Assembly (NCBI GenBank): GCA_050301035.1
Contig: JBNKYT010000013.1
Coordinates: 81,796 to 145,795 of the forward strand
Direction of reading: 5' to 3'
DNA from: Puniceicoccaceae bacterium
GTDB taxonomy: Bacteria > Verrucomicrobiota > Verrucomicrobiia > Opitutales > Coraliomargaritaceae
DNA length: 64,000 nt
Shown: positions 1-49,176 of the stretch, one piece after another
Position numbering within the stretch: the first letter of the stretch is position 1
Layout of the letters: each line of letters begins with the position of its first letter
Made by a program: the position numbers and the translations under genes
Notes under the pieces: model-generated
Seen by the model: only the letters and a program-made list of their open reading frames with translations
What the model was told of the DNA's origin: nothing
Databases searched by the model: none

Positions 1-2631
1 GAAGTCCAGGAAGGCTTCCTCAGTCAGTCGCCGAAACAATTCACCGCACTCTACCAACGCATCGAACGCGACTACGGCGATTACTTCTACGACCGCGAGA
101 GCGACCTGCACGAGGCACCGTCCGAAACGCCATCGGCCCCCGTAAAGAGCGCCTCCGCCGAAGAAGAGAACGACGACCTCGAAGCCTTCCTCGCCAGCAT
201 TCCGTTTGAGGACGAAGCGGATGACGACGACGCTTCCGCTCTGTCCCCGGAGCCAACCAGCCCCACCAATCGCAGCAGCGATATTCCGGCCGAATGGGAC
301 GTCCTCCAGTACTTCTATCAGGAAGCCGATGAAAATCTCGCTGCAATGGAGCAAGCCCTCCTCTCGCTGGAACGCGGCGAAGGCGGCGAAAGCGCCACCA
401 ACGAGATCCTGCGCCTGACGCACTCAACCAAAGGCGCGGCCAACAGCATGGGCATGTTCCGCATCGCCAAGCTCATGCACGCCACCGAAGAACTGTTTCT
501 GCGGGCGAGTGACAACGAGATCGAATTACAACCGGACGAGTACTCGGTGATCCTCGCAACAACCGATCTGATCCGGGAAATTCTCGACGAAACCCGTAGC
601 CATTCCCCCATTGAAGGCCTGTCCGAAAAGCTGGAAAAACATTTTCAGGCACTCGACTCCATCGGCGAGCCGCGCGCCCCACTGCCCGAACCGGTCCGCC
701 CCGAAACGCCAGCCCACACAAACCAAGCGGCGGAGACGGAAACAACTCCCACAACCGCCGGCGGGAACCTGTCAGCGCCTGCGGAGCCGCTGCCTCACGA
801 CGAGGCCATACCCGGCGCACCGCTCAACACCTTCCGGATCGATGCCGCCAAGATCGACTCCCTGATGAATACCGTCGGGGAACTCATCATCAGCCGCACC
901 CGGATGGCCAAAAAGATCGACCACCTGCTGGAGGTCTGCACCGAACTCACCAAATCGCGCACCCGCATGCGGGAAAGCATCGAAGCCTTCAGCGAACGCT
1001 TCGAATATACCAATCGGGAAACGGGAGCCATCATCTCCGGACAACCGGAAGCCGAAGCATCGGGACACACCTCATTGGCGGATGACTTCGCCTTGATGGA
1101 ATTCGACCGCTACGACGATTTCAACATCCTCAGCCGCCGACTGACCGAAATCGGGAACGACACCGATCTCGCGATCCGTCAAATCTTCCGGGGCGGTCAG
1201 GACGTGCGCAACGAATCCACTCAACTCGGGAGCTTCATCGGCCGCATTCAAGACGAAATCTCCAGCACCCGTCTGGCACCGATCGCCATCTTGTTCAAAC
1301 GTCTGGAACGCTCGGTCCGCGATGCCGCCCACAAAGCAAATTGCGAAGTCCGGCTCCAAACACACGGCGACGACATCCTCCTCGACAAGTCCATTCTCGA
1401 CGACCTCTTCCAACCCATGCTGCACATTGTGCGCAATGGCGTAGCCCATGCCTTTAAAGGGCGCGAAACCGGTCAAAATCTAATCCGGATCAACGCACAT
1501 CAAGAAGGAGGCCGCATCCTTGTGAGCGTAAACGATAACGGCAACGGAGTCGACTTCGAGAAAGTCGCCGCCCTCGCCCGCACTCAGGGACTGCTGTCAG
1601 CCTCAGACACCGCGGAATCCCACTTGCTCGAAGTACTCTTCCATCCCGGCTTCAGTACCACCGACGTTGCCGACGAAGTGTCTGGCCGCGGTATCGGGCT
1701 CGATGCCGTCAAAGCCGACATCGAGCGGCTCGGCGGCAGTGTCCGGATCGAGTCAGCCCAAGGACAAGGCACCGCCTTCTCCCTCAACCTTCCGCTGACT
1801 CTGGCGATTGATCGCGGCATGTACTTCTATGTCGGCAAACAACTGTACGTCGTCTTCATGGCCGCCGTCGAACAAGTCTTCTTCAGCCACGATGTGAAAC
1901 TCGGACAGATCGGAAACCGGGAAGTCCTGGAGTTGGACGACGCCTCCATTCCAGTCATCGACCTGCGTCACCTCTTCCAAGCACCCATCGAAGAAAACAA
2001 CCGTCGCGAAGCGATCATCCTCTGCCGCCAACTCAACAACCGCATCGCCCTCAAAGTCGACCGCGTCTTCTATCAGGACGACGTCGTGGTGAAAAACCTC
2101 GGCCCGCTTTTCGAAAATCACCGCTACTTCGGAGCCGCCACGATTTACGGCGACGGTGAAATCGTCCCGATTCTCGACATCGGCCGAATCGGGCCAGCGT
2201 TCCATAACGCAGACCTTCACGTCAGAGAACCACTCCCCGAAAAGGAAACTTCCGAAAAGAAAAACCGCATCCTCGTCGTGGACGATTCGCTCAGCGTGCG
2301 GAAAATCTGCGAGGACTATCTGGCCGACTCCGGCTTTCTCATCGAAACCGCCAACGACGGCCTCGACGCCCTCAACCGCATCAAGTCCCACTCGTACGAA
2401 CTCATCCTCACGGACTTGGAAATGCCGCGCCTCAACGGCCTCGAGCTCATCGCCGAACTGAAGCGCCGCCCGAACACGCGCGACATCCCCGTGATCGTCA
2501 TCACCTCCCGAACCACGGAAAAGCACCGAAAAAAAGCGCTCTCACTGGGAGCCGCCGAGTGCCTGGGCAAGCCTTTCGGTAAAGAAAGCCTGAACGCGGC
2601 CATAGCAGCGCAGCTCCTGGTGCAAGCCTAA
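1..2631 (+). CDS. cheA: CheA-family hybrid histidine kinase with C-terminal receiver domain (5' end outside window)
   Basis: Frame 1 is open from nt 1 to the first ATG at 346, so the CDS probably begins upstream of the window. Translation shows an Hpt site (LRLTHSTKGAANSMG), an HATPase region (RNGVAHAF, VNDNGNGVD, SGRGIGLD, GQGTAFSL), a CheW-like P5 segment and a receiver (ILVVDDS...LTDLEMPRLNG...LGKPF). Confidence 0.85.
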   Translation, partial: EVQEGFLSQSPKQFTALYQRIERDYGDYFYDRESDLHEAPSETPSAPVKSASAEEENDDLEAFLASIPFEDEADDDDASALSPEPTSPTNRSSDIPAEWDVLQYFYQEADENLAAMEQALLSLERGEGGESATNEILRLTHSTKGAANSMGMFRIAKLMHATEELFLRASDNEIELQPDEYSVILATTDLIREILDETRSHSPIEGLSEKLEKHFQALDSIGEPRAPLPEPVRPETPAHTNQAAETETTPTTAGGNLSAPAEPLPHDEAIPGAPLNTFRIDAAKIDSLMNTVGELIISRTRMAKKIDHLLEVCTELTKSRTRMRESIEAFSERFEYTNRETGAIISGQPEAEASGHTSLADDFALMEFDRYDDFNILSRRLTEIGNDTDLAIRQIFRGGQDVRNESTQLGSFIGRIQDEISSTRLAPIAILFKRLERSVRDAAHKANCEVRLQTHGDDILLDKSILDDLFQPMLHIVRNGVAHAFKGRETGQNLIRINAHQEGGRILVSVNDNGNGVDFEKVAALARTQGLLSASDTAESHLLEVLFHPGFSTTDVADEVSGRGIGLDAVKADIERLGGSVRIESAQGQGTAFSLNLPLTLAIDRGMYFYVGKQLYVVFMAAVEQVFFSHDVKLGQIGNREVLELDDASIPVIDLRHLFQAPIEENNRREAIILCRQLNNRIALKVDRVFYQDDVVVKNLGPLFENHRYFGAATIYGDGEIVPILDIGRIGPAFHNADLHVREPLPEKETSEKKNRILVVDDSLSVRKICEDYLADSGFLIETANDGLDALNRIKSHSYELILTDLEMPRLNGLELIAELKRRPNTRDIPVIVITSRTTEKHRKKALSLGAAECLGKPFGKESLNAAIAAQLLVQA

Positions 2632-2653
2632 CCACGACTTTCAAAATCCAACC

Positions 2654-3418
2654 ATGCCCGTTTCTCAACAATTCGTCACCTTCCAGTGCGCGGCATACCA
2701 CATGGCCCTGCCCGCCGATGCGATCCGGCACCTCACCTTCGCAGAAAAGAAAGACGCCATCCTCACACAAAAAGAATTCTCCATCGGCTCCTTCCGGTCC
2801 GGCGAAGAAATCCTCCCCGGCGTGGAACTCTTCGACACGGCCGAGCCGGGGCAGCGCGTCCCGCTCATCCGTATCGACACACCCGAAGGTCTGCTGGCCG
2901 TCCGTGCCACACAGATTCTCGACCTGCACCGCACCGCCCGACTTCAGCCCCTGCCGCTCTATACCGACGACGGTATCGCCGCCTGCTTCCCGCTCGGCTT
3001 CAGGTGGAAGCAACGAACTTACCACGTACTGGATGAACAAGCCCTGCTGAAGCTCGCCCCTCAGGCCCTCTTGAAGGCAGCAGATGCCGACCAAGAGCTG
3101 ACCACACGAGAACGCAGCATTCCGGTTCAACAGAAATACTGGTTGAGCTACCAACTCAGCCTGATCCTCAATGAAAAAATCTCCGGCCGGATCGAACTGG
3201 AAACCCGCGAGAACCGCGCTTGCCTGGGCTTTACCGCCGGTCACCTCACCTACGCCCGAAGCGATCAAAAGGCCGGTCGCGATGCACTGCGCGCCATCGC
3301 GGCGGAAAAGAACTGGCAGAAGGCACAATGGCACGACGACGAAATCGACGCCGACCATAATATCGCCGACAATCTCCTCGATCTAATCGCCGACTCAAAC
3401 CCCATCCACGCCCAATGA
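2654..3418 (+). CDS. CheW-like coupling domain fused to a DUF4388-like C-terminal domain
   Basis: The N-terminal ~135 aa follow the CheW pattern (QQFVTFQCAAYHMALPADAIRHL; GSFRSGEEILPGVEL; LIRIDTPEGLLAVRATQILDL). The C-terminal part (SGRIELETRENRACLGFTAGHLTYARSDQKAGRDALRAI) resembles DUF4388. It starts 22 nt after the cheA stop. Confidence 0.6.
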   Translation: MPVSQQFVTFQCAAYHMALPADAIRHLTFAEKKDAILTQKEFSIGSFRSGEEILPGVELFDTAEPGQRVPLIRIDTPEGLLAVRATQILDLHRTARLQPLPLYTDDGIAACFPLGFRWKQRTYHVLDEQALLKLAPQALLKAADADQELTTRERSIPVQQKYWLSYQLSLILNEKISGRIELETRENRACLGFTAGHLTYARSDQKAGRDALRAIAAEKNWQKAQWHDDEIDADHNIADNLLDLIADSNPIHAQ

Positions 3419-3891
3419 GTTCCGCCACACCATCCTCCACCGCAAGCGAGATCGGCGGGCTCTTACTGGAAACCGCCGGAGCAAGCTACCACCTCCCCGG
3501 AACATCGCCCACGGCCGTCATCCGGCTCCACGAATGGAGCCCCGTTCCGGGTGCGCCAAGCTACGTTCTCGGCACTACCGAACATGAAGAACGGATCTAT
3601 ACCATCCTGGATCCCGACGGATTCGAGCCGGCCCTACAGCCCGAAAAACCAGCACCTGTGCCATCGGCCCCGCAAGAATCACGGATCGGACTCGTCATCA
3701 CCGACGAGCGTGCACACCCCTACATACTCGTGGGCCTGCGTGTACGTTCCGCGCCCGCCTCCGGCACAAACGGCTGGACCGAGCTCACTTTCCCTCCGCC
3801 TCTGCTCATGCCCGGAACCGCCCAAACACCGATTCAGATACAACGAGGCCCGAATGCCACGACACGCTCGGAGCCAATGGCACGCACGTAA
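3415..3891 (+). CDS. CheW-like protein
   Basis: PVPGAPSYVLGTTEHEERIYTILDPDGF and RIGLVITDERAHPYILVGLRV fit the CheW core pattern. ATGA start/stop overlap with the preceding gene at 3415-3418. Confidence 0.55.
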   Translation: MSSATPSSTASEIGGLLLETAGASYHLPGTSPTAVIRLHEWSPVPGAPSYVLGTTEHEERIYTILDPDGFEPALQPEKPAPVPSAPQESRIGLVITDERAHPYILVGLRVRSAPASGTNGWTELTFPPPLLMPGTAQTPIQIQRGPNATTRSEPMART

Positions 3892-3971
3892 CAGATTTTG
3901 AGTCAAAAATCAGCGCGTATGTTCCGCCATCAGCCCCCGGTCGGCACGCGGGCTTACTCAACAATCAGTGA

Positions 3972-4445
3972 TCAATCCGGCTGCGCGGAATTGATCACTT
4001 CAGGTTCTGGTTTTGCGGTGAATGCTTGCTTGGAATGCGGATCGAAGCCTGCGCTTTCATAAAACTTTAGAGTACCTTCATCTTTTCTTCCTGTCATTAA
4101 CATAACTTTATAGCAGTTTTGGCTCCAAGCGTAATTCCGTGCGTGCACAAGAATGGCCCTGCCAATTCCATTTCTTCTGAATTTGGGGTGAGTTACCACA
4201 TTTTCGATTAAGCCATAGGGACGACAGGAACGGGTCAGGTTGGGGATGATGGAAATTGTACAGGAAGCAACCAGTCTTTCTTTCTCGAAGGCTCCGAAAT
4301 AATTCAGCTTCGGACTGTTGATAATTTCGCCCCAAACGACTGATAATTGCTCTTTTTCGGGCAGTGGGGTGTCATCTGCGTGAAGATGCTCATAGAGAGC
4401 TAAAAGTTCGCTTAACTCGGACTCTTTTAATTCTCTTATTTTCAT
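3972..4445 (-). CDS. GNAT family N-acetyltransferase
   Basis: Acetyl-CoA binding motif A region (VVTHPKFRRNGIGRAILVHARNYA...LKFYESAGF). Visibly lower G+C than the flanks. Confidence 0.85.
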   Translation of the reverse strand: MKIRELKESELSELLALYEHLHADDTPLPEKEQLSVVWGEIINSPKLNYFGAFEKERLVASCTISIIPNLTRSCRPYGLIENVVTHPKFRRNGIGRAILVHARNYAWSQNCYKVMLMTGRKDEGTLKFYESAGFDPHSKQAFTAKPEPEVINSAQPD

Positions 4446-4470
4446 TTCATTCTCCAGAACGATGGGAGTC

Positions 4471-4974
4471 TCAAGAAGTGAAGCGCGGAGCGCGCAACGG
4501 AATTGAGACCTCCGATTGGTTACGTATTATTTTTTTCGCCATATGTGAGGAAGTCGTGAACCCCAGCTTTTGGTATAGGTCGCCACTTAACCTGGATGCA
4601 TCTAAATTAACTGTCGAAATGCCTGCAGACTCAAACCATGGCAATAGCATCTCAAGCATAGCTTTTGCGATTCCTTTTCTTCTGAATTCTGGACTCACGA
4701 AAACGTCCATCAGATAGCCATAATCCGACTGCTTAAATGAGGCGCTCAGGAATTGATCTGTGCGTATCAATCCTCCAGCACATCCGATGATTGAATTGTC
4801 GCTTTCGCAAACAACATGAATGCATTTCTTTTTCTGGTATTCGCCGGTGTAGTAATGGATCGTTCTTTCGAGAAAGTCCTCAGTCAACAGCTGGGTAGTT
4901 TCGATTTCATCAAACATCCGAAATCGAAGCTCTGCGATTCTGGCTAGGTCTTGAACTGTAGAAAAACGATTCAT
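4471..4974 (-). CDS. GNAT family N-acetyltransferase
   Basis: Motif A region (VFVSPEFRRKGIAKAMLEMLLPWFESAGI...LYQKLGF). In tandem with the previous GNAT and also low G+C. Confidence 0.85.
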   Translation of the reverse strand: MNRFSTVQDLARIAELRFRMFDEIETTQLLTEDFLERTIHYYTGEYQKKKCIHVVCESDNSIIGCAGGLIRTDQFLSASFKQSDYGYLMDVFVSPEFRRKGIAKAMLEMLLPWFESAGISTVNLDASRLSGDLYQKLGFTTSSHMAKKIIRNQSEVSIPLRAPRFTS

Positions 4975-5004
4975 ATTTTCTTATATATTAAGGTAAAACC
5001 GCCG

Positions 5005-5523
5005 TTACCGGACGATCCCCTTGTCCCGCTCAAGCGGGACGAGCGGCATTGATTCGCTTCGCTCAGTCCTACGGACCAGCCTCCAGCTGCCCATCTCCGC
5101 TATGCTACGTCCCGCACAGGGCTCCTCAGTTGAGTCGCGCAGTGGTTGAAGCGATGCTTTCAGATTAGACATGGGGTCGATGGCTGCATGGTTTCTACGA
5201 TTTTCGAATTTGGGATGTCGAGCGTCTTCCTCCAGTATGCCCGCCCGCAGCCATTTGCGGATCAGGCAGATGAAGTGACTGTCGGCGATCCGCTCTTCAA
5301 ACATCCGGATCAGCCAATCGTGATCCATGTGATCGAAGAAGCCTTTGATGTCGGCTTCGACGTCTACTACCTTCTTACAGGGCTGATCGCATGCTTGGGG
5401 GAGTGTGCGAGGCTCCTTGCGACTCGTAATGCTTCTCTGTCTACGCTTCGACAAAGCTGCTGCAAGTCCCACCGAAGGGGAATGAGTAAGCGAATCGGGA
5501 TTCAGCCACATGGGGTATTTCAA
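5005..5523 (-). pseudogene. Relic of a group II intron/retron-type reverse transcriptase (truncated)
   Basis: The internal segment VVDVEADIKGFFDHMDHDWLIRMFEERIADSHFICLIRKWLRAGILEED matches the RT block that normally precedes the GTPQGG and YADD motifs. Neither motif follows, and the flanking translation looks unrelated. Confidence 0.55.
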
Positions 5524-5712
5524 ACTTCCAGTCCCAAACCTGCCTAGCTTTCAACAATGCAACTTCCCCCCTCCCAGCGAGTGACACCGCCCAAAAAGTA
5601 AATTCCTAACAGTTGCCATACGGCGAGCTTTCATTTTGATCCGTTATTTTGCACGGATGATCCTGTCTCCCTGTCTCGCCCCAACACTTGAATAATATAG
5701 ATAAACAGCCCC

Positions 5713-7722
5713 ATGGCCTTTCGTCGTCTTTCAGTCTCATCCTGTCTTCGCATTGCAGTATTTGCCCTCTGCGGAGCAGCCACAGTTCAACTGTCTGCAA
5801 TCGACAAAGAAGCGAAGTGGCTCCAACAACTGACTTTCCGTGAGCAGCGTTTACTTGAAAAAATGCTGGCTAAAACGCCGAAGACGACAAAAGAAAGTCA
5901 AACCATAGTTGAGCCCCGAATAGTGGGGGGCGATACCGCTGCATCGGGTGACTACCCCTGGATGGTTGGACTCTTGGACCGAGCGACCAGTGATCGCTTT
6001 CAAGCGCAATACTGTGGTGCCTCATTAATTCATCCCTACTGGGTTTTGACGGCTGCGCACTGTGTCGATGGAGATTCGCCCGAGGTGATCGATGCCTTGG
6101 TGGGAGGGTATAATCTCAACTCGTCCACCGAGGGAGAGCGGATTGAGGTGGTTGAGATCATCATGCACCCCGACTATGATCCGAACACATTGGATTCGGA
6201 TGTCGCTTTGCTACGCCTGGCAACGCCAGCTTCGGCCCCGGTTTTGCGCTTGAACAGTGACGCAGCCCTGGAGCAACCTGACACGCTGGCCGCCGTCATC
6301 GGCTGGGGGGCGCTGGATGAAGAGAATACCAGCTTTCCGGCTGTGCTCAACGATGTGTTTGTTCCTTTGGTTTCGCTGGGAGATGCGAACGCGTCCAATC
6401 GCTATAATGGCACGTTGACGACGAACATGCTGGCTGCAGGCAACCTGAGTGAAGGAGGCGTCGATAGCTGCCAGGGAGACAGCGGAGGCCCACTCGTGCT
6501 GGAAGATATCGACGGTGAGTGGACACTGTCGGGGATCGTAAGTTTTGGCAATGGCTGTGCAAATCCCGATTTTCCCGGCATTTATACCCGGGTTAGCCAG
6601 ATCCGCTCTTGGGTGCTGCGGCACGTCTTGCCGGAGTACGCGGATTGGGAGATCGAGCAGGATGTGTTTGGAGAGGCCCGTGATTTCGATGAAGACACAC
6701 AATCCAACTTCTACGAATTTTCTCTGGATTTGAATCCACGTCAGATGGATGGCGGAGGGGTCAACGCGCTGACTGTGGATGGTCAAGCGGCCTTTCAACT
6801 GAGCCGGCCGATGGATGGCGGGGCCGAAGTGGCGTATCGCTTGTTGTATAAAGCCTCACTGTCTGACCTGAGCTGGACCGAGCTGGACTACGAGAGTTCC
6901 CTCGCGGGCTCTGATGTCGTCGATGACCGCGAGCTATTGACTTTCGATTTCCCTGCGGCAAATGCCGGATTCGTTAAGGTTGAACCAAAAGAAGCGCAGG
7001 ACTTGGCCTTCGCACCCCGCTGGATTCCCTTGGGCCGCCCGTCCTACTCGAACTTAACTTCAGAGCTGCGCAGAGACGAATTCGGGAGATTGTATCAGGA
7101 ATTTCTGGTCACCGATACCTCTGGTGGCGAAACCTTGACCATTACTGGCGTATCGAATGATTTCGACTTGGGGGTTGAACTCTACGACTATGCGACCGGT
7201 GTGCTGTTGGGCTCGTTCACTGCGGATAATTTCGAAAGCACCAGCGAGCAATTCGAGTACACGCCAAGCTCCGGTTTCATCGTGCGTGTCTTTTCGGAAA
7301 CCTCAATTGGGCAAGGCGCGTACTGGATTTTAGTCGGTGTGCCGAGTTCTGGAACCGTCGATACGATCGGGCAGAATGACACCATAAACGATTCACTCAC
7401 CACGAGTGACGAGGTGGATCCCATCTATTCAGGAGGCGGTGAGACTTACTACAAAAAGGACTACTTCCTCGACACTCCGGACGGCTATAATACTGCAATC
7501 GAAGTGACACTGACTTCCAGTGACTTTGATGCCTACCTCATGCTTGTGCATGCCACCACGGGTGCCCTGCTTGATGAGAATGATGACATCAATGCGGGTG
7601 CCGGAAATTATAATTCAAGCCTAACAATTGCCCCATCGAATTTTGGGAATGTTTTGATCCGTGTGACCACTGCCTATGGCAGTGAGACCGGGTCCTTCAC
7701 CTTGACGACAAATCCGATATAG
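5713..7722 (+). CDS. Secreted trypsin-like serine protease (S1 family) with C-terminal PPC-like domains
   Basis: Signal peptide (MAFRRLSVSSCLRIAVFALCGAATVQLSA), activation junction PR/IVGG, catalytic His (LTAAHCV), Asp (DSDVALLRL) and Ser (DSCQGDSGGPLV). The C-terminal segments DFDLGVELYD and SDFDAYLMLVHATTGALLDENDD resemble pre-peptidase C-terminal domains. Confidence 0.9.
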   Translation: MAFRRLSVSSCLRIAVFALCGAATVQLSAIDKEAKWLQQLTFREQRLLEKMLAKTPKTTKESQTIVEPRIVGGDTAASGDYPWMVGLLDRATSDRFQAQYCGASLIHPYWVLTAAHCVDGDSPEVIDALVGGYNLNSSTEGERIEVVEIIMHPDYDPNTLDSDVALLRLATPASAPVLRLNSDAALEQPDTLAAVIGWGALDEENTSFPAVLNDVFVPLVSLGDANASNRYNGTLTTNMLAAGNLSEGGVDSCQGDSGGPLVLEDIDGEWTLSGIVSFGNGCANPDFPGIYTRVSQIRSWVLRHVLPEYADWEIEQDVFGEARDFDEDTQSNFYEFSLDLNPRQMDGGGVNALTVDGQAAFQLSRPMDGGAEVAYRLLYKASLSDLSWTELDYESSLAGSDVVDDRELLTFDFPAANAGFVKVEPKEAQDLAFAPRWIPLGRPSYSNLTSELRRDEFGRLYQEFLVTDTSGGETLTITGVSNDFDLGVELYDYATGVLLGSFTADNFESTSEQFEYTPSSGFIVRVFSETSIGQGAYWILVGVPSSGTVDTIGQNDTINDSLTTSDEVDPIYSGGGETYYKKDYFLDTPDGYNTAIEVTLTSSDFDAYLMLVHATTGALLDENDDINAGAGNYNSSLTIAPSNFGNVLIRVTTAYGSETGSFTLTTNPI

Positions 7723-24386: not shown

Positions 24387-24705
24387 GTAGTCCTTCGTTT
24401 GTAGAGTTTTCAAATCCAGAGAGCTTGGCCGTCTGGATCTGAACAGGCCAATCCGACTAACGTCCGAACGCCCTGTGATGCTCAAAGTTCATTCCGTTCG
24501 CGGCGAATGATTTGATTTAACCACAGAAGACTCAAAAATCTCAAAATTCATTCCGTTTTTCTTTTCTGTGCCTTATGTGCATTTTGTGGTTCGAACCTGC
24601 CGAGCCTTAGGTCTTCTCCTTCCTCAGATCGTGAAAGGGATGCATAGATGAGAGTAGCGAAATCTACTGTAGATCCTGTCCTTACTGTATCAACTCTTTG
24701 ATTGT

Positions 24706-25131
24706 TTATGTTTCAGCATTAGTCAGGACTGGGGATCCAGCTTCTGTTTTTCGAAACTGGACTGGGCCGTAGACTCGATCATGCTGAGCTTCCAAGCCTT
24801 TGGGTTGGATCCAATATTGGCAATTTTCTACCGATAAATAAATTGAGAAAAATGGAACCTCAACTGAGTCTGAGTAAGGTGCTATCGTGAAATACTTCAA
24901 CTGGGAACCGTTACTTTCTAAGGTTTCAAGATAGGCATCCCATTCTTCTTTTTCAATTTCTGGTAAACCTTGAGTTGAGATGGTGTGATAACCAGTGACT
25001 CTTGGGTTTAAAGACTCTGCGAATGCAAGTCCACCGATACTTTCAGCGAGAGTTTCAATGCTCTTAAACTCCTCACCAGATGCACCTACCATTGAAAGTA
25101 GGCTGAGAGTGATGAAAACTCGTATGTTCAT
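24706..25131 (-). CDS. Hypothetical secreted protein (orphan, low G+C)
   Basis: N-terminal signal peptide (MNIRVFITLSLLSMVGASG). No recognisable domain. Composition differs from the neighbours. Confidence 0.5.
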   Translation of the reverse strand: MNIRVFITLSLLSMVGASGEEFKSIETLAESIGGLAFAESLNPRVTGYHTISTQGLPEIEKEEWDAYLETLESNGSQLKYFTIAPYSDSVEVPFFSIYLSVENCQYWIQPKGLEAQHDRVYGPVQFRKTEAGSPVLTNAET

Positions 25132-25336
25132 TTCTTCTGTGGATCAGTGTTTAGTGCCTAACTACTTTGCGGGTGCGTACTACTGAGTTGCGAAATTGCC
25201 GCGCCATTCGAACCCAATTCCGCAGCTTATGAATTTCGCAAGCCCCTGAAAGACTGAAATCTGGTAGTTGCGCAAAGCGAGAGAGCTTCAAAGTTACCGC
25301 TGATTCATTTAATCAGCGTTCCGTAGAATGCGCGGT

Positions 25337-26392
25337 TTAATAATCCTTCCAGTACACGCGCTTCGAATCCTGCGCGGCGGAGTCGGCGACCATTTCGGTG
25401 AAAGTCATGTAGCGCACACCTTGCTCGAAGCTGGTAAGCTGGACCGGTGCCCCCTTGCGGATGGAACGGACGAAATCGGCCTCGACCTGCCAGCCCCGGC
25501 TCTGCTGGCGGGACATGGTCAGCTTCTTTTCCTCGCTCTCTCCTGCCGGGGCAAAAAGGAGCATGGTGTGAAAGGCATCAAAGCGAAGCGCGCCTTTCGA
25601 GCCGTTGATCCGAAATTCCATGCGCGGTTTGCCCGATTCGACCCCGCTGAAATGATAGACCATGCGTGCGCCGGAACCGGCGAAACGCCCCAGAATACTG
25701 ATGCTGTCCGGGATCTCCACCGGGGTTTCCCCGTCCTGCCCGGGATAACTGCGGCGAGGCTGGAAAATCGCGCTATCGGCCATCAGCCACTCGGGCTCGT
25801 CTTCGACCCAGCGTTGGACGGTCTCGTGCATAATGCCCATGGTCAGGACGTTGTTACCGCTCAGGCTTTTATCCTGACGCCATGTCATGGGTGCCTCGGG
25901 GCTGGCGGACTGGCCTCCGGTGTGAACGACACGCACTTCGAGAATTTCGCCGAGTTTGCCTTGTTGGATCATCTCCCGGATGGTCGCATCGAAATCGAGC
26001 GAGAACGGGGCTGGCACGATTTGCGCCACCAGTTCGGGGTGCGTCTGCGCTGCGGCTTGCATGCGGCGGGCTTCATCGAGATTACAGGCCATGCGGGCTT
26101 CACAGAGTACGTGCTTGCCATGCTCCAACGCGGCGATCGTGGCCTCCGCATGAAGATAAGGCCAAGTGCCGATACAGACGGCGTCGATCGACGGATCTTC
26201 AACGACTTCCCGCCAATGATTGGCCACTTGTTTGATGCCTTCGAGCTTGGCGACTTTTTGAGCCGACTCCAGTGTCCGGTTCGCCACGACGGAGAGTTCC
26301 ACGTTCTCAATTTTGAGAAAACCTGGAATGTGCATTTTACGGGTATTGGTTCCCGCCCCGATAAATCCGATACGCAGTTTATGAGGGTTCAT
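25337..26392 (-). CDS. Gfo/Idh/MocA family oxidoreductase
   Basis: [20 protein letters not shown] Rossmann N-terminus. 351 aa. Confidence 0.85.
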
Positions 26393-26410
26393 CGTTTGAT
26401 CTAAAGATAG

Positions 26411-29116: not shown

Positions 29117-29280
29117 CAAAGTCGATTTCAAGTATCACAATGCCGCGACCTGAGGCGTGTGAAATGGGGATGGCGCTTCGCGAATACGGAGGGCGGCGCG
29201 CGGAAGAAAGGGAGACCAAAAAGCAGACAAAAGGCATACATCTAGTTGACAATCCTATAATTGCTTAAGACTTTATCTTT

Positions 29281-30102
29281 ATGGCTAAGACGCTGGACAT
29301 TGATGTTTTCGACCGCACAAATCGACTGAGTGCTGCCTTGGAGAAGTCAGAGCAAACCAATAAACGCAGCAGCCGCTATCATTTTGCGGTAAAACGCTAC
29401 AAGCAGTTTCGAACACACAAACAGATCAGGGGTGGGTTTTGCATCCTGCATATCGGCAGCAAGGCCGCTGGACTGGAACAGTTGCGCGAAGTGCGTAAAC
29501 AACTCGACAGTAAACGATGGCGAGGCGTGGTGGCCGTGCTAAATAGTAAACTGGCCAGCGATACTCAGTTTCAACGCATATTGCTACAGCCAGGCCGAAC
29601 TGACGCGATCCGCTTCATCATCGACGATAAGGCGGATGAAAACCCGAAGCCTGTCGTCGATCATTTGAACGATCTGATTGATACGGTTGGCACCGAAGAT
29701 ACCCGTGAAGGCAGTAAAGCCATCCATCTGCCCTACCTCGAGGCGGGCCAACCGATCCGCAACCCCAAAAGCCACCGGCTCGATGCCAAGCGTATCGCAG
29801 ATTACTTCGACCTTAGCTTGCGGGAGCTGGCTCGTATCTTAGGAAAAAGTCACCCCACGGTCGATAAAACGCCCGACAGCAAGAATCTACAGGCGACGCT
29901 ACAACCCTTCGAAGCCATTCTGCGGGGACGAATTTTAGTCGGACATGACGATACACTTTTCCGCCAATGGTTGAACACCGCATCCAAGGAATTTCCTGAG
30001 CGGGACGGAAAAGTACCAAGCCCTATGGATATTATACGGATGGGGCATCCCGAAGTCGTGGCGGCACTCGTTGACGAAGCCTTAACCGGTCAACCCGCCT
30101 GA
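29281..30102 (+). CDS. Xre/DUF2384 (ParS/MbcA-like) antitoxin with an unknown ~165-aa N-terminal extension
   Basis: The C-terminal third has an HTH (LSLRELARILGKSHPTV) plus a DUF2384-like segment (FRQWLNTASKEF...SPMDIIRMGHPEVVAALVDEAL). It lies immediately upstream of a RES-domain gene (9-nt gap). Confidence 0.7.
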   Translation: MAKTLDIDVFDRTNRLSAALEKSEQTNKRSSRYHFAVKRYKQFRTHKQIRGGFCILHIGSKAAGLEQLREVRKQLDSKRWRGVVAVLNSKLASDTQFQRILLQPGRTDAIRFIIDDKADENPKPVVDHLNDLIDTVGTEDTREGSKAIHLPYLEAGQPIRNPKSHRLDAKRIADYFDLSLRELARILGKSHPTVDKTPDSKNLQATLQPFEAILRGRILVGHDDTLFRQWLNTASKEFPERDGKVPSPMDIIRMGHPEVVAALVDEALTGQPA

Positions 30103-30111
30103 CGACTGAAG

Positions 30112-30714
30112 ATGCTATCCGCTGTAGAACTCAATACTGCGATTAGCCAGATACAGGGCACTCCCTACGCAGGTGTGCTCACCCGCTTTGTGGATAGCGA
30201 TGCATTCGAAGCAGGGGATAAAAATTGTTTCTACGACTTAGGTCCCCATGTCAGTGGCAAGCGCTATACGCCCAAAGGCGGCGCACGCGGCATCTACATG
30301 GCCGAAGGTATTAAAGCCGCTCTGGGTGAAGCGACCCAAAATGGGCTCGCGGCATTAAATCCAAACAGGGTAGCCACACGTAACCAGATGGATATCAAAG
30401 TTAAGCTGGAGAGCGTGCTGGATTTGGGTGACGCGAGGATTCGTCGACGCCTGCAGACTTCAATTAATGAACTCAAATTACCATGGAAGGGTGGATTACT
30501 TCCGCCCTACTCCTGGCCGGTAACATGGCTGTTGGGGCAGGCAGTTTTTGAGAGTGAGCGCTTTGACGGGATACGCTACCCTTCAAAGGAAGTAAACCGA
30601 CATTACTGCGTGCTGATTTTAACGGAACGACTGGGTAAAAGCGCAAAACTTGCTGCACACCGCCCCGGCGAAGGACCTGTCTCTTTAACTGGTAATTTCA
30701 AGCTAAGACCATGA
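30112..30714 (+). CDS. RES-domain toxin
   Basis: Ordered R-E-S signature: SGKRYTPKGG, IYMAEGIKAALGE, GIRYPSKEVNRHYCVLI. 200 aa. Confidence 0.8.
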   Translation: MLSAVELNTAISQIQGTPYAGVLTRFVDSDAFEAGDKNCFYDLGPHVSGKRYTPKGGARGIYMAEGIKAALGEATQNGLAALNPNRVATRNQMDIKVKLESVLDLGDARIRRRLQTSINELKLPWKGGLLPPYSWPVTWLLGQAVFESERFDGIRYPSKEVNRHYCVLILTERLGKSAKLAAHRPGEGPVSLTGNFKLRP

Positions 30715-30957
30715 GCAATACCGGCAAACCAGAGCGCTCGACCAAAACATCCGCAACGACTCACCCGTGCGCCATGAAAATTGGAGATAGTGAGGAAATG
30801 CGCCCCACCGACTAGTGCTTAAATGCTGTATGACAAAGCGATAACCGATGTGATGCCATCAGTCATTCTGCATCATGTCCAGTAACCGGGGCTCTTTGAA
30901 GAATGAGACTCTGACGACGACCTTGATCGTATTGGAGTTGGAGGGAAGGCAACAGGA

Positions 30958-49099: not shown

Positions 49100-49176
<77 letters not shown>

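Follow-up and report, generated by a model that had tools for sequence, protein, structure and literature searches.

The RES–Xre locus

The DNA analysed here is a 64,000-nucleotide stretch of the genome of a Puniceicoccaceae bacterium (GenBank assembly GCA_050301035.1, contig JBNKYT010000013.1, positions 81,796 to 145,795 of the forward strand), which we refer to as the window and number from its first nucleotide. Close to its centre, two genes on the forward strand encode an antitoxin with an Xre-like helix-turn-helix (HTH) and a RES-domain toxin. A preliminary description, made from the letters of the sequence, had placed the two genes 9 nt apart, and this is borne out by the coordinates of the open-reading frames (ORFs; Table 1). 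RES–Xre modules are well known as toxins that deplete nicotinamide adenine dinucleotide (NAD+), and what triggers them is largely obscure. Judged by sequence, the pair is a real toxin–antitoxin (TA) pair of this known kind, a putative NAD-destroying RES toxin with an Xre-type antitoxin. The toxin family is thus a known one, and the new element is a rare, CheY-like domain at the front of the antitoxin.

The RES toxin

The product of the downstream gene matches the Pfam RES profile (PF08808) over residues 40–176 at 38.2 bits, above the cut-off of 23.2 (E = 1.8e-9), and a profile of its family retrieved one match among PDB sequences, the toxin MbcT (6fkg, E = 3.8e-7). These matches bear out its initial naming as a RES-domain toxin, and the motifs quoted at that time are present at residue 50 (KRYTPKGG), residue 62 (YMAEGIKAALGE) and residue 155 (RYPSKEV). 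We found 23 homologues, nearly all of 189–209 amino acids (aa). Across an alignment of 21 sequences R25, R51, Y62 and S158 never vary and E73 hardly does, whilst E65 is variable. R51, Y62 and E73 align to R47, Y58 and E69 of MbcT; S158 lies outside the aligned block, and its correspondence to MbcT S126 would follow from its place in the RES motif, whilst R25, also outside the block, probably corresponds to MbcT R27, judging from position alone. The RES triad of MbcT is R47-E69-S126, and phosphorolysis of NAD+ by MbcT requires R27, R47 and Y58 (PMC6436930). The ordered arginine, glutamate and serine motifs of the initial reading stand; of the two glutamates in its middle motif, E65 varies and E73, aligned to MbcT E69, is more likely to be the catalytic one. 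Because the key residues are conserved and align to essential residues of MbcT, the toxin looks catalytically intact. Its consumption of NAD+ we infer from its family membership.

A two-part antitoxin

At 273 aa the antitoxin lies beyond the size of single-module antitoxins (~100–170 aa) and within the 265–311 aa range of its own family. Searching 5.8 billion proteins yielded 24 long-antitoxin relatives, most of them 265–286 aa, which align over their full length with identities down to 32%. The few named relatives belong to the Opitutales or Verrucomicrobiales, and among ~185,000 species genomes a relative is present in three, all Verrucomicrobiota. The order of antitoxin then RES gene on the same strand is kept here and in nearly all relatives, where stop/start overlaps occur. 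An oversized cognate antitoxin, as the preliminary description had it, is what the gene encodes: a two-domain protein directly upstream of RES. In the AlphaFold2 model of the long antitoxin, built on the family alignment (mean predicted local distance difference test score, pLDDT, 81.5), an alpha/beta domain (residues 3–136) is joined by a disordered linker (residues 140–149), which varies in length and sequence within the family, to a helical C-terminal half with a pLDDT of ~90.

The C-terminal half had been read as an HTH plus a DUF2384-type toxin-binding segment. Its matches to the Xre-like HTH profile PF20432 (18.3 bits vs. 25.8, residues 169–198) and to NCBIfam Xre_ParS (NF049845, 13.6 vs. 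90) are sub-threshold. A profile of residues 147–273 finds proteins of 134–168 aa which carry PF09722 (Xre_MbcA_ParS_C) above threshold, at E-values of 1e-19 to 1e-27, and Foldseek against the PDB ranks NatR first (8qnl_B; template-modelling score on the target, TMt, 0.61) and also lists VPA0769 (8gug_C), although at an E-value of only 2.9e-3. The reading thus holds by way of PF09722 proteins and a NatR-like fold, but not by a direct Pfam match above cut-off. Because of these profile and fold matches we take residues 150–273 as a complete, divergent RES antitoxin and residues 1–140 as an addition to it. A profile match of the C-terminal module to a designed 'CAP repeat' protein in the PDB was rejected as an artefact of HTH-like repeats. 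PADLOC assigned an anti-phage label to neither antitoxin nor toxin.

Members of the family share a conserved N-terminus (M..TLDIDVFD), and over codons 1–140 the ratio of nonsynonymous to synonymous substitution rates (dN/dS) is 0.10–0.23. An internal start, a doubt which the preliminary description had itself expressed, is ruled out by this selection and by the conservation of the N-terminus down to 32% identity; the start at 29281 is therefore correct, and residues 1–140 are a selected protein domain.

Table 1 Positions of the features discussed, in window coordinates unless the locus of a relative is named
Feature	Position	Strand	Description or basis
Antitoxin gene	29281–30102	+	ORF, 273 aa
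RES toxin gene	30112–30714	+	ORF, 200 aa; predicted NAD+-consuming enzyme
Orphan alpha/beta N-domain, antitoxin residues 1–140	29281–29700	+	CheY/flavodoxin-like predicted fold; no phospho-acceptor Asp
Predicted disordered linker, antitoxin residues 141–149	29701–29727	+	pLDDT <50 (residues 140–149)
Xre-like HTH (residues ~169–198) and MbcA/ParS-type toxin-binding module, residues 150–273 and stop	29728–30102	+	
Whole mobile cassette	29218–30737	+	DNA homology to relatives in other metagenomes; GC shift
hsdR 5' relic	30711–30737	+	27 nt, ~9 codons (MSNTGKPER); ATGA overlap with RES stop
Conserved upstream block	29225–29251	+	AGCAGACAAAAGGCATACAT..GTTGACA; candidate -35 and/or operator for the HTH antitoxin
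TATAAT hexamer	29256–29261	+	19 nt before ATG; overlaps a weak palindrome at 29257–29276
Distant pairs in Hma/BREX-related operons	L001 4001–5433; L005 5001–6460; L017 1444–2861; L022 6001–7433; P0018 locus		
Receiver-fused RES antitoxin loci	L026 1325–2339; L025 5584–6806; L003 4001–5058; P0062		

Fold and rarity of the N-terminal domain

Pfam, NCBIfam, PADLOC and the sequences of the PDB contain no match to residues 1–165. When 1.84 billion representatives were searched exhaustively with an HMMER profile, 11 matches came back, nine of which share the same architecture (213–291 aa) or are fragments. As none of these searches found anything outside the family, the possibility raised at the outset, that this region is a common and characterised domain, is ruled out; it is rare and confined to the family. 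The early statement that the N-terminus resembles nothing recognisable accordingly stands for the sequence libraries, but not for structure, as the predicted fold is CheY/flavodoxin-like. Modelled alone with AlphaFold2 (pLDDT 78.9, predicted template-modelling score 0.74), the domain shows the order b-a-b-b-a-b-a-b-a, that is five strands and four long helices with none between beta-2 and beta-3, arranged in a three-layer alpha/beta sandwich. Receiver (REC) domains are its commonest Foldseek matches (template-modelling scores on the query, TMq, of 0.50–0.59), and include the XynC REC (E = 3.9e-3), CheY (TMq 0.57), ChxR and ComE. A library of viral structures gave nothing specific, with no match at E ≤ 1e-3, and profile matches to designed TIM barrels in the PDB reflect generic beta-alpha repeats. 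Using hhalign with a REC profile and intermediate sequences, the domain aligned over 119 columns in the correct register from beta1 to alpha5 (P = 0.005 vs. 0.5–1.0 for controls). Among the acidic receiver residues only D11, where beta-1 ends, is conserved. A bona fide receiver (PF00072) is ruled out by the missing Asp and the lack of a significant profile match. On the strength of the models the domain is CheY/flavodoxin-like and plausibly a degenerate pseudo-receiver, with a similarity to REC that falls short of accepted significance. It also evolves faster than the C-terminal module, the window protein and that of P0019 sharing 20.6% identity in the former and 54% in the latter.

Receiver-fused antitoxins

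Homologues of the same C-terminal module occur on receivers. One locus (L026) has it on a genuine REC (38.5 bits vs. 30.2) with a DLKMP motif, with PF09722 above threshold and followed by the RES gene. In P0025 (27.6 bits) and P0062 (18.8 bits) this module carries REC-like N-termini that score under the Pfam cut-off, and L025 has a REC-like N-terminus without a Pfam REC match; in P0025 and L025 the receiver acceptor position holds His. These receiver-fused antitoxins (L026/L028, P0062, P0025, L025) resemble that of the window in having an alpha/beta N-domain, an HTH and a toxin-binding domain, followed by the RES gene, with C-terminal modules 38–41% identical to the window protein and an N-domain in the same position and of the same predicted fold class. 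They differ in that the REC of L026 is above cut-off and carries DLKMP, whereas the window family has neither a REC signal nor the Asp, and they come from other phyla (a Planktothrix cyanobacterial genome and metagenome contigs). No paper on them turned up in a literature search that paired DUF2384 or RES antitoxins with receiver domains. A further 262-aa protein with the same C-terminal module (L027, 5557–6940) precedes a RES gene and has a different, unrecognised N-region of ~150 aa, which may be a second kind of accessory domain.

A mobile cassette with a relic of hsdR

Nucleotide alignments (blastn) to six relatives (L007, L011–L015) show 66–79% identity, beginning at 29218 or 29220 and ending at 30635 or 30737. 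Within these limits the GC content is 51.4%, compared with 58–59% in the flanks, and GC at third codon positions (GC3) is 0.50–0.57 in the cassette genes, compared with 0.73–0.74 in the DUF445 gene and recQ. The lower-GC islet that had been seen at this locus is hence real, and Pfam confirms the two genes named as its flanks. The islet is surrounded by housekeeping genes: a lolCD-like ATP-binding cassette (ABC) transporter, DUF445, recQ with RQC/HRDC domains, and lpxB. The recQ gene is convergent to the cassette, and there is no gene downstream of RES left for regulation.

The last 27 nt of the cassette align with the start of hsdR in three relatives (L012, L013 and L014), the window reading ATGAGCAATACCGGCAAACCAGAGCGC where L012 reads ATGAGTAAAATCGGTAAAGCAGAACGC. 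Searches with tblastn found no hsdR, SNF2 or other restriction-modification (R-M) gene elsewhere in the 64-kb window. The window pair therefore does not lie in an R-M operon and has the relic only, whereas the pairs of L007, L011–L015, L001, L005, L017 and L022 do. Because of this stub, and because the window holds no R-M gene, the cassette can be read as derived from an arrangement of the pair with hsdR, and as now an orphan between DUF445 and recQ, apparently excised from the locus of a restriction enzyme. A foreign, probably horizontally acquired origin is supported by the GC3 values, the limits of the DNA homology and the hsdR stub. At the borders of the islet we found neither target-site duplications nor terminal repeats. 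The sole RNA gene of the window (Rfam/ARAGORN), a tRNA-Val (GAC) at 49100–49176, is distant from the cassette, whose integration is thus not linked to a tRNA gene.

Restriction context of the relatives

We surveyed 13 informative, non-redundant loci of the long-antitoxin family, and 11 of these place the pair within or next to a restriction-type system. The preliminary description had noted neither this association nor the hsdR relic. The RES gene is usually directly upstream of hsdR or of the SNF2 helicase of systems related to Hma and bacteriophage exclusion (BREX). In the clade of the window pair, which goes with type I restriction, the hsdR start overlaps the RES stop at L011–L013 and L020, at L014 and L015 an hsdR fragment of ~300 aa follows the pair, and at L007 the pair sits between hsdM/hsdS and hsdR with a RES gene shortened to 122 aa (5832–6200). 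In a distant clade and P0017 the pair is found between a DUF1156 methylase and the SNF2 helicase. The gene string around the distant pairs, DUF499-DUF7680-DUF1156-SNF2, is that of the Hma or DUF499-centred BREX-related system (PMC12839542, PMC11232893). Here the RES stop overlaps the start of the helicase, L017 having a PDDEXK gene between the two. A 2026 survey of BREX and BREX-related systems mentions neither Xre nor RES components (PMC12839542). The pair of L018 has no R-M neighbour, and none was found in the first 3 kb of L010. The top-listed papers of a literature search that combined RES modules with R-M systems or defence islands included nothing relevant.

The toxin gene is not intact at every relative. 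Besides L007, RES is shortened to 102 aa in L003 (4750–5058), and L019, of the window clade, has the antitoxin alone (2983–3807), without RES, before a type IIG-like methylase/endonuclease. In L016, of the same clade, the antitoxin and a 43-aa RES fragment (6806–6925) stand with hsdR 5' stubs beside two M78-DUF4411 units. This suggests either decay of the toxin with retention of the antitoxin, or a role of the long protein that is independent of the toxin.

The L016 locus shows a further arrangement. Two tandem Peptidase_M78-DUF4411 units (1473–5896) are each followed by a short ORF matching the first ~35–50 residues of HsdR, and the antitoxin and RES fragment come after these units. On the sequence, this looks like serial insertion of cassettes at the 5' end of hsdR.

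Upstream region

Alignment of the upstream regions of five relatives revealed an A-rich block (29225–29250), ~30 nt before the ATG, whose last positions are an invariant GTTGAC. The block is a candidate promoter -35 and/or operator, and a leader that is short, or missing altogether, would fit its position. The TATAAT to which the preliminary description drew attention is present, but a role as promoter -10 draws no support from conservation: the hexamer is not conserved in relatives and lacks a -35 partner at a spacing of 16–18 nt; no two-hexamer sigma-70 site was found upstream of the antitoxin gene.

Comparison with known systems

The closest characterised pair is MbcT–MbcA of M. tuberculosis (Rv1989c–Rv1990c), in which the toxin is an NAD+ phosphorylase. 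As in the window, the antitoxin gene precedes that of the toxin and the antitoxin has its toxin-binding module at the C-terminal end, but sequence identity is low, and MbcA has 113 aa compared with 273 aa and an extra domain of 140 aa here. NatR (of NatR–NatT, Pseudomonas aeruginosa) and VPA0769 (of VPA0769–VPA0770, Vibrio parahaemolyticus) share with residues 150–273 an HTH and a C-terminal toxin-binding helix. These two antitoxins, and those of P. putida Xre–RES and ParST, are in contrast single-module proteins of 113–127 aa with no N-terminal alpha/beta domain, and no description places their systems within restriction operons, unlike the relatives of the window pair.

Proposed mechanism and alternatives

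We consider it probable, at roughly 70%, that the cassette is a functional type II RES–Xre module in which the N-domain serves for dimerisation or as a regulatory input, and which has lost its hsdR partner. The toxin would be an MbcT-like enzyme that consumes NAD+, whether by phosphorolysis or by hydrolysis. The C-terminal half of the antitoxin would hold it inactive, its last helix plugging the NAD+ pocket, as in MbcA, NatR, ParS and GndX; blocking of the toxin pocket by the C-terminal helix of the antitoxin has been described for MbcA, NatR and GndX (PMC6436930; PMC12457610). Its HTH would act on the conserved block upstream and so repress transcription of the cassette. The N-domain would be a degenerate, phosphorylation-independent pseudo-receiver, acting in dimerisation or as an input on the oligomeric state, DNA binding or stability of the antitoxin. 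The ancestral copy presumably stood in a type I restriction locus, immediately before hsdR, and hsdR was then lost. The gene structure, the RES membership, the conserved catalytic residues, the two-domain build of the antitoxin, the selection on its N-domain and the rarity of that domain, the hsdR relic and the restriction context of relatives are observed, and the depletion of NAD+, the mode of neutralisation, the autoregulation and any role of the N-domain are parts of this model that we infer.

A number of results weigh against this reading. In the antitoxin of the window, PF09722/DUF2384 was not matched directly by Pfam, and 16 family members scanned singly against Pfam at E ≤ 10 gave no match to the N-domain, PF00072 included. 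No Foldseek match of the N-domain to the PDB reached E ≤ 1e-3, and von Willebrand factor A (integrin I), CENP-M and Ras folds score similarly to REC. Aligned by hhalign to six textbook REC domains, the N-domain gave E = 0.24, no better than the Ras and flavodoxin controls, and its alignment to the merged REC profile, though in the same register, has a probability of 7%. At the acceptor position, residue 57, it has His, with H, R, Q, G or T in the family, the Lys (Lys-Pro) after beta-5 is missing and the acidic pocket is absent. The intact long antitoxins with a truncated or absent RES (L007, L016, L019 and L003) also belong here. The last of these observations is at the same time what would favour a domesticated regulator, in which the long Xre protein is mainly a transcription factor with C-protein-like control of restriction genes, and RES is dispensable or attenuated. 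An hsdR start overlapping the RES stop implies co-transcription from the promoter of the pair, and the non-toxic GndRX of Legionella offers a precedent (PMC12457610). In the window, however, RES is full length with all key residues, and with recQ convergent no downstream gene is left to control, which makes this the least credible of the alternatives, and a very improbable one.

Two other explanations concern the purpose of the added domain. The cassette may be a plain addiction or stabilisation module, whose N-domain is a structural dimerisation domain unrelated to receivers, receives no signal, and whose function is to stabilise defence islands. The sequence tests for REC homology were negative, the fold of the N-domain matches generic alpha/beta structures, TA modules are typical cargo of islands and cassette-like mobility is seen. 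We nevertheless think this unlikely, as the canonical relatives (134–168 aa) work without an N-domain, a selected addition of 140 aa is hard to explain as scaffold, and the REC (L026) and REC-like N-termini (P0025, P0062, L025) on the same module point to regulatory input. The pair may otherwise guard restriction, comparable to PrrC: the N-domain would dock on the restriction complex, or monitor HsdR, the Hma/BREX-related SNF2 helicase or phage anti-restriction factors, and RES would be released when restriction fails, as a back-up suicide module for enzymes with superfamily 2 (SF2) translocases, whose depletion of NAD+ aborts infection and of which the window copy would be an orphan. The 11 of 13 loci with restriction-type systems agree with such a role, as do the order of RES then hsdR (L011–L015) or SNF2 (L001, L005, L022 and the P0018 locus), often with overlapping stop and start, the hsdR stub kept in the window, and the much faster divergence of the N-domain (~20% vs. 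54% identity for the C-terminal module). PrrC of EcoprrI is a precedent (PMC1484252, PMC3458546): it is a suicide effector inside a type Ic R-M operon beside hsdR, a position which relatives of the window pair share (PMC1484252). The proteins are nevertheless unrelated, PrrC being a tRNA-cleaving, ABC-ATPase-regulated nuclease which the restriction enzyme itself keeps silent, without an antitoxin of its own; a coupling would be putative here, and the window copy has lost hsdR. The window copy is also intact and under selection with no hsdR or SNF2 gene in 64 kb, L018 has a pair without an R-M neighbour, a single N-domain clade has both hsdR and SNF2 partners (P0017 vs. P0006), and TA modules often gather in defence islands without functional coupling. 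The restriction link of the window copy is circumstantial, and we think a guard function unlikely.

A functional RES–Xre module with a regulatory N-domain would matter as an antitoxin with an added, selected domain of input type, whether receiver-fused or orphan and CheY-like, offers a concrete way into the question of what may switch these modules. The repeated position of relatives before restriction translocase genes, in two defence systems, suggests a testable link from restriction failure to abortive NAD+ depletion. If the guard reading were true, a TA module would have provided a second, PrrC-like line of defence common to two unrelated restriction families; if the N-domain is a scaffold alone, the locus is a modest addition to TA diversity.

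Other features of the window

Away from the cassette, another patch of low GC (41–45%) lies at 24400–25300, within which a minus-strand ORF of 141 aa (24706–25131) has an N-terminus resembling a signal peptide. Next to it two long ORFs on opposite strands overlap almost fully, 25328–26404 (+) and 25337–26392 (-); the former has no Pfam match, and the latter is oxidoreductase-like and looks like the true gene.

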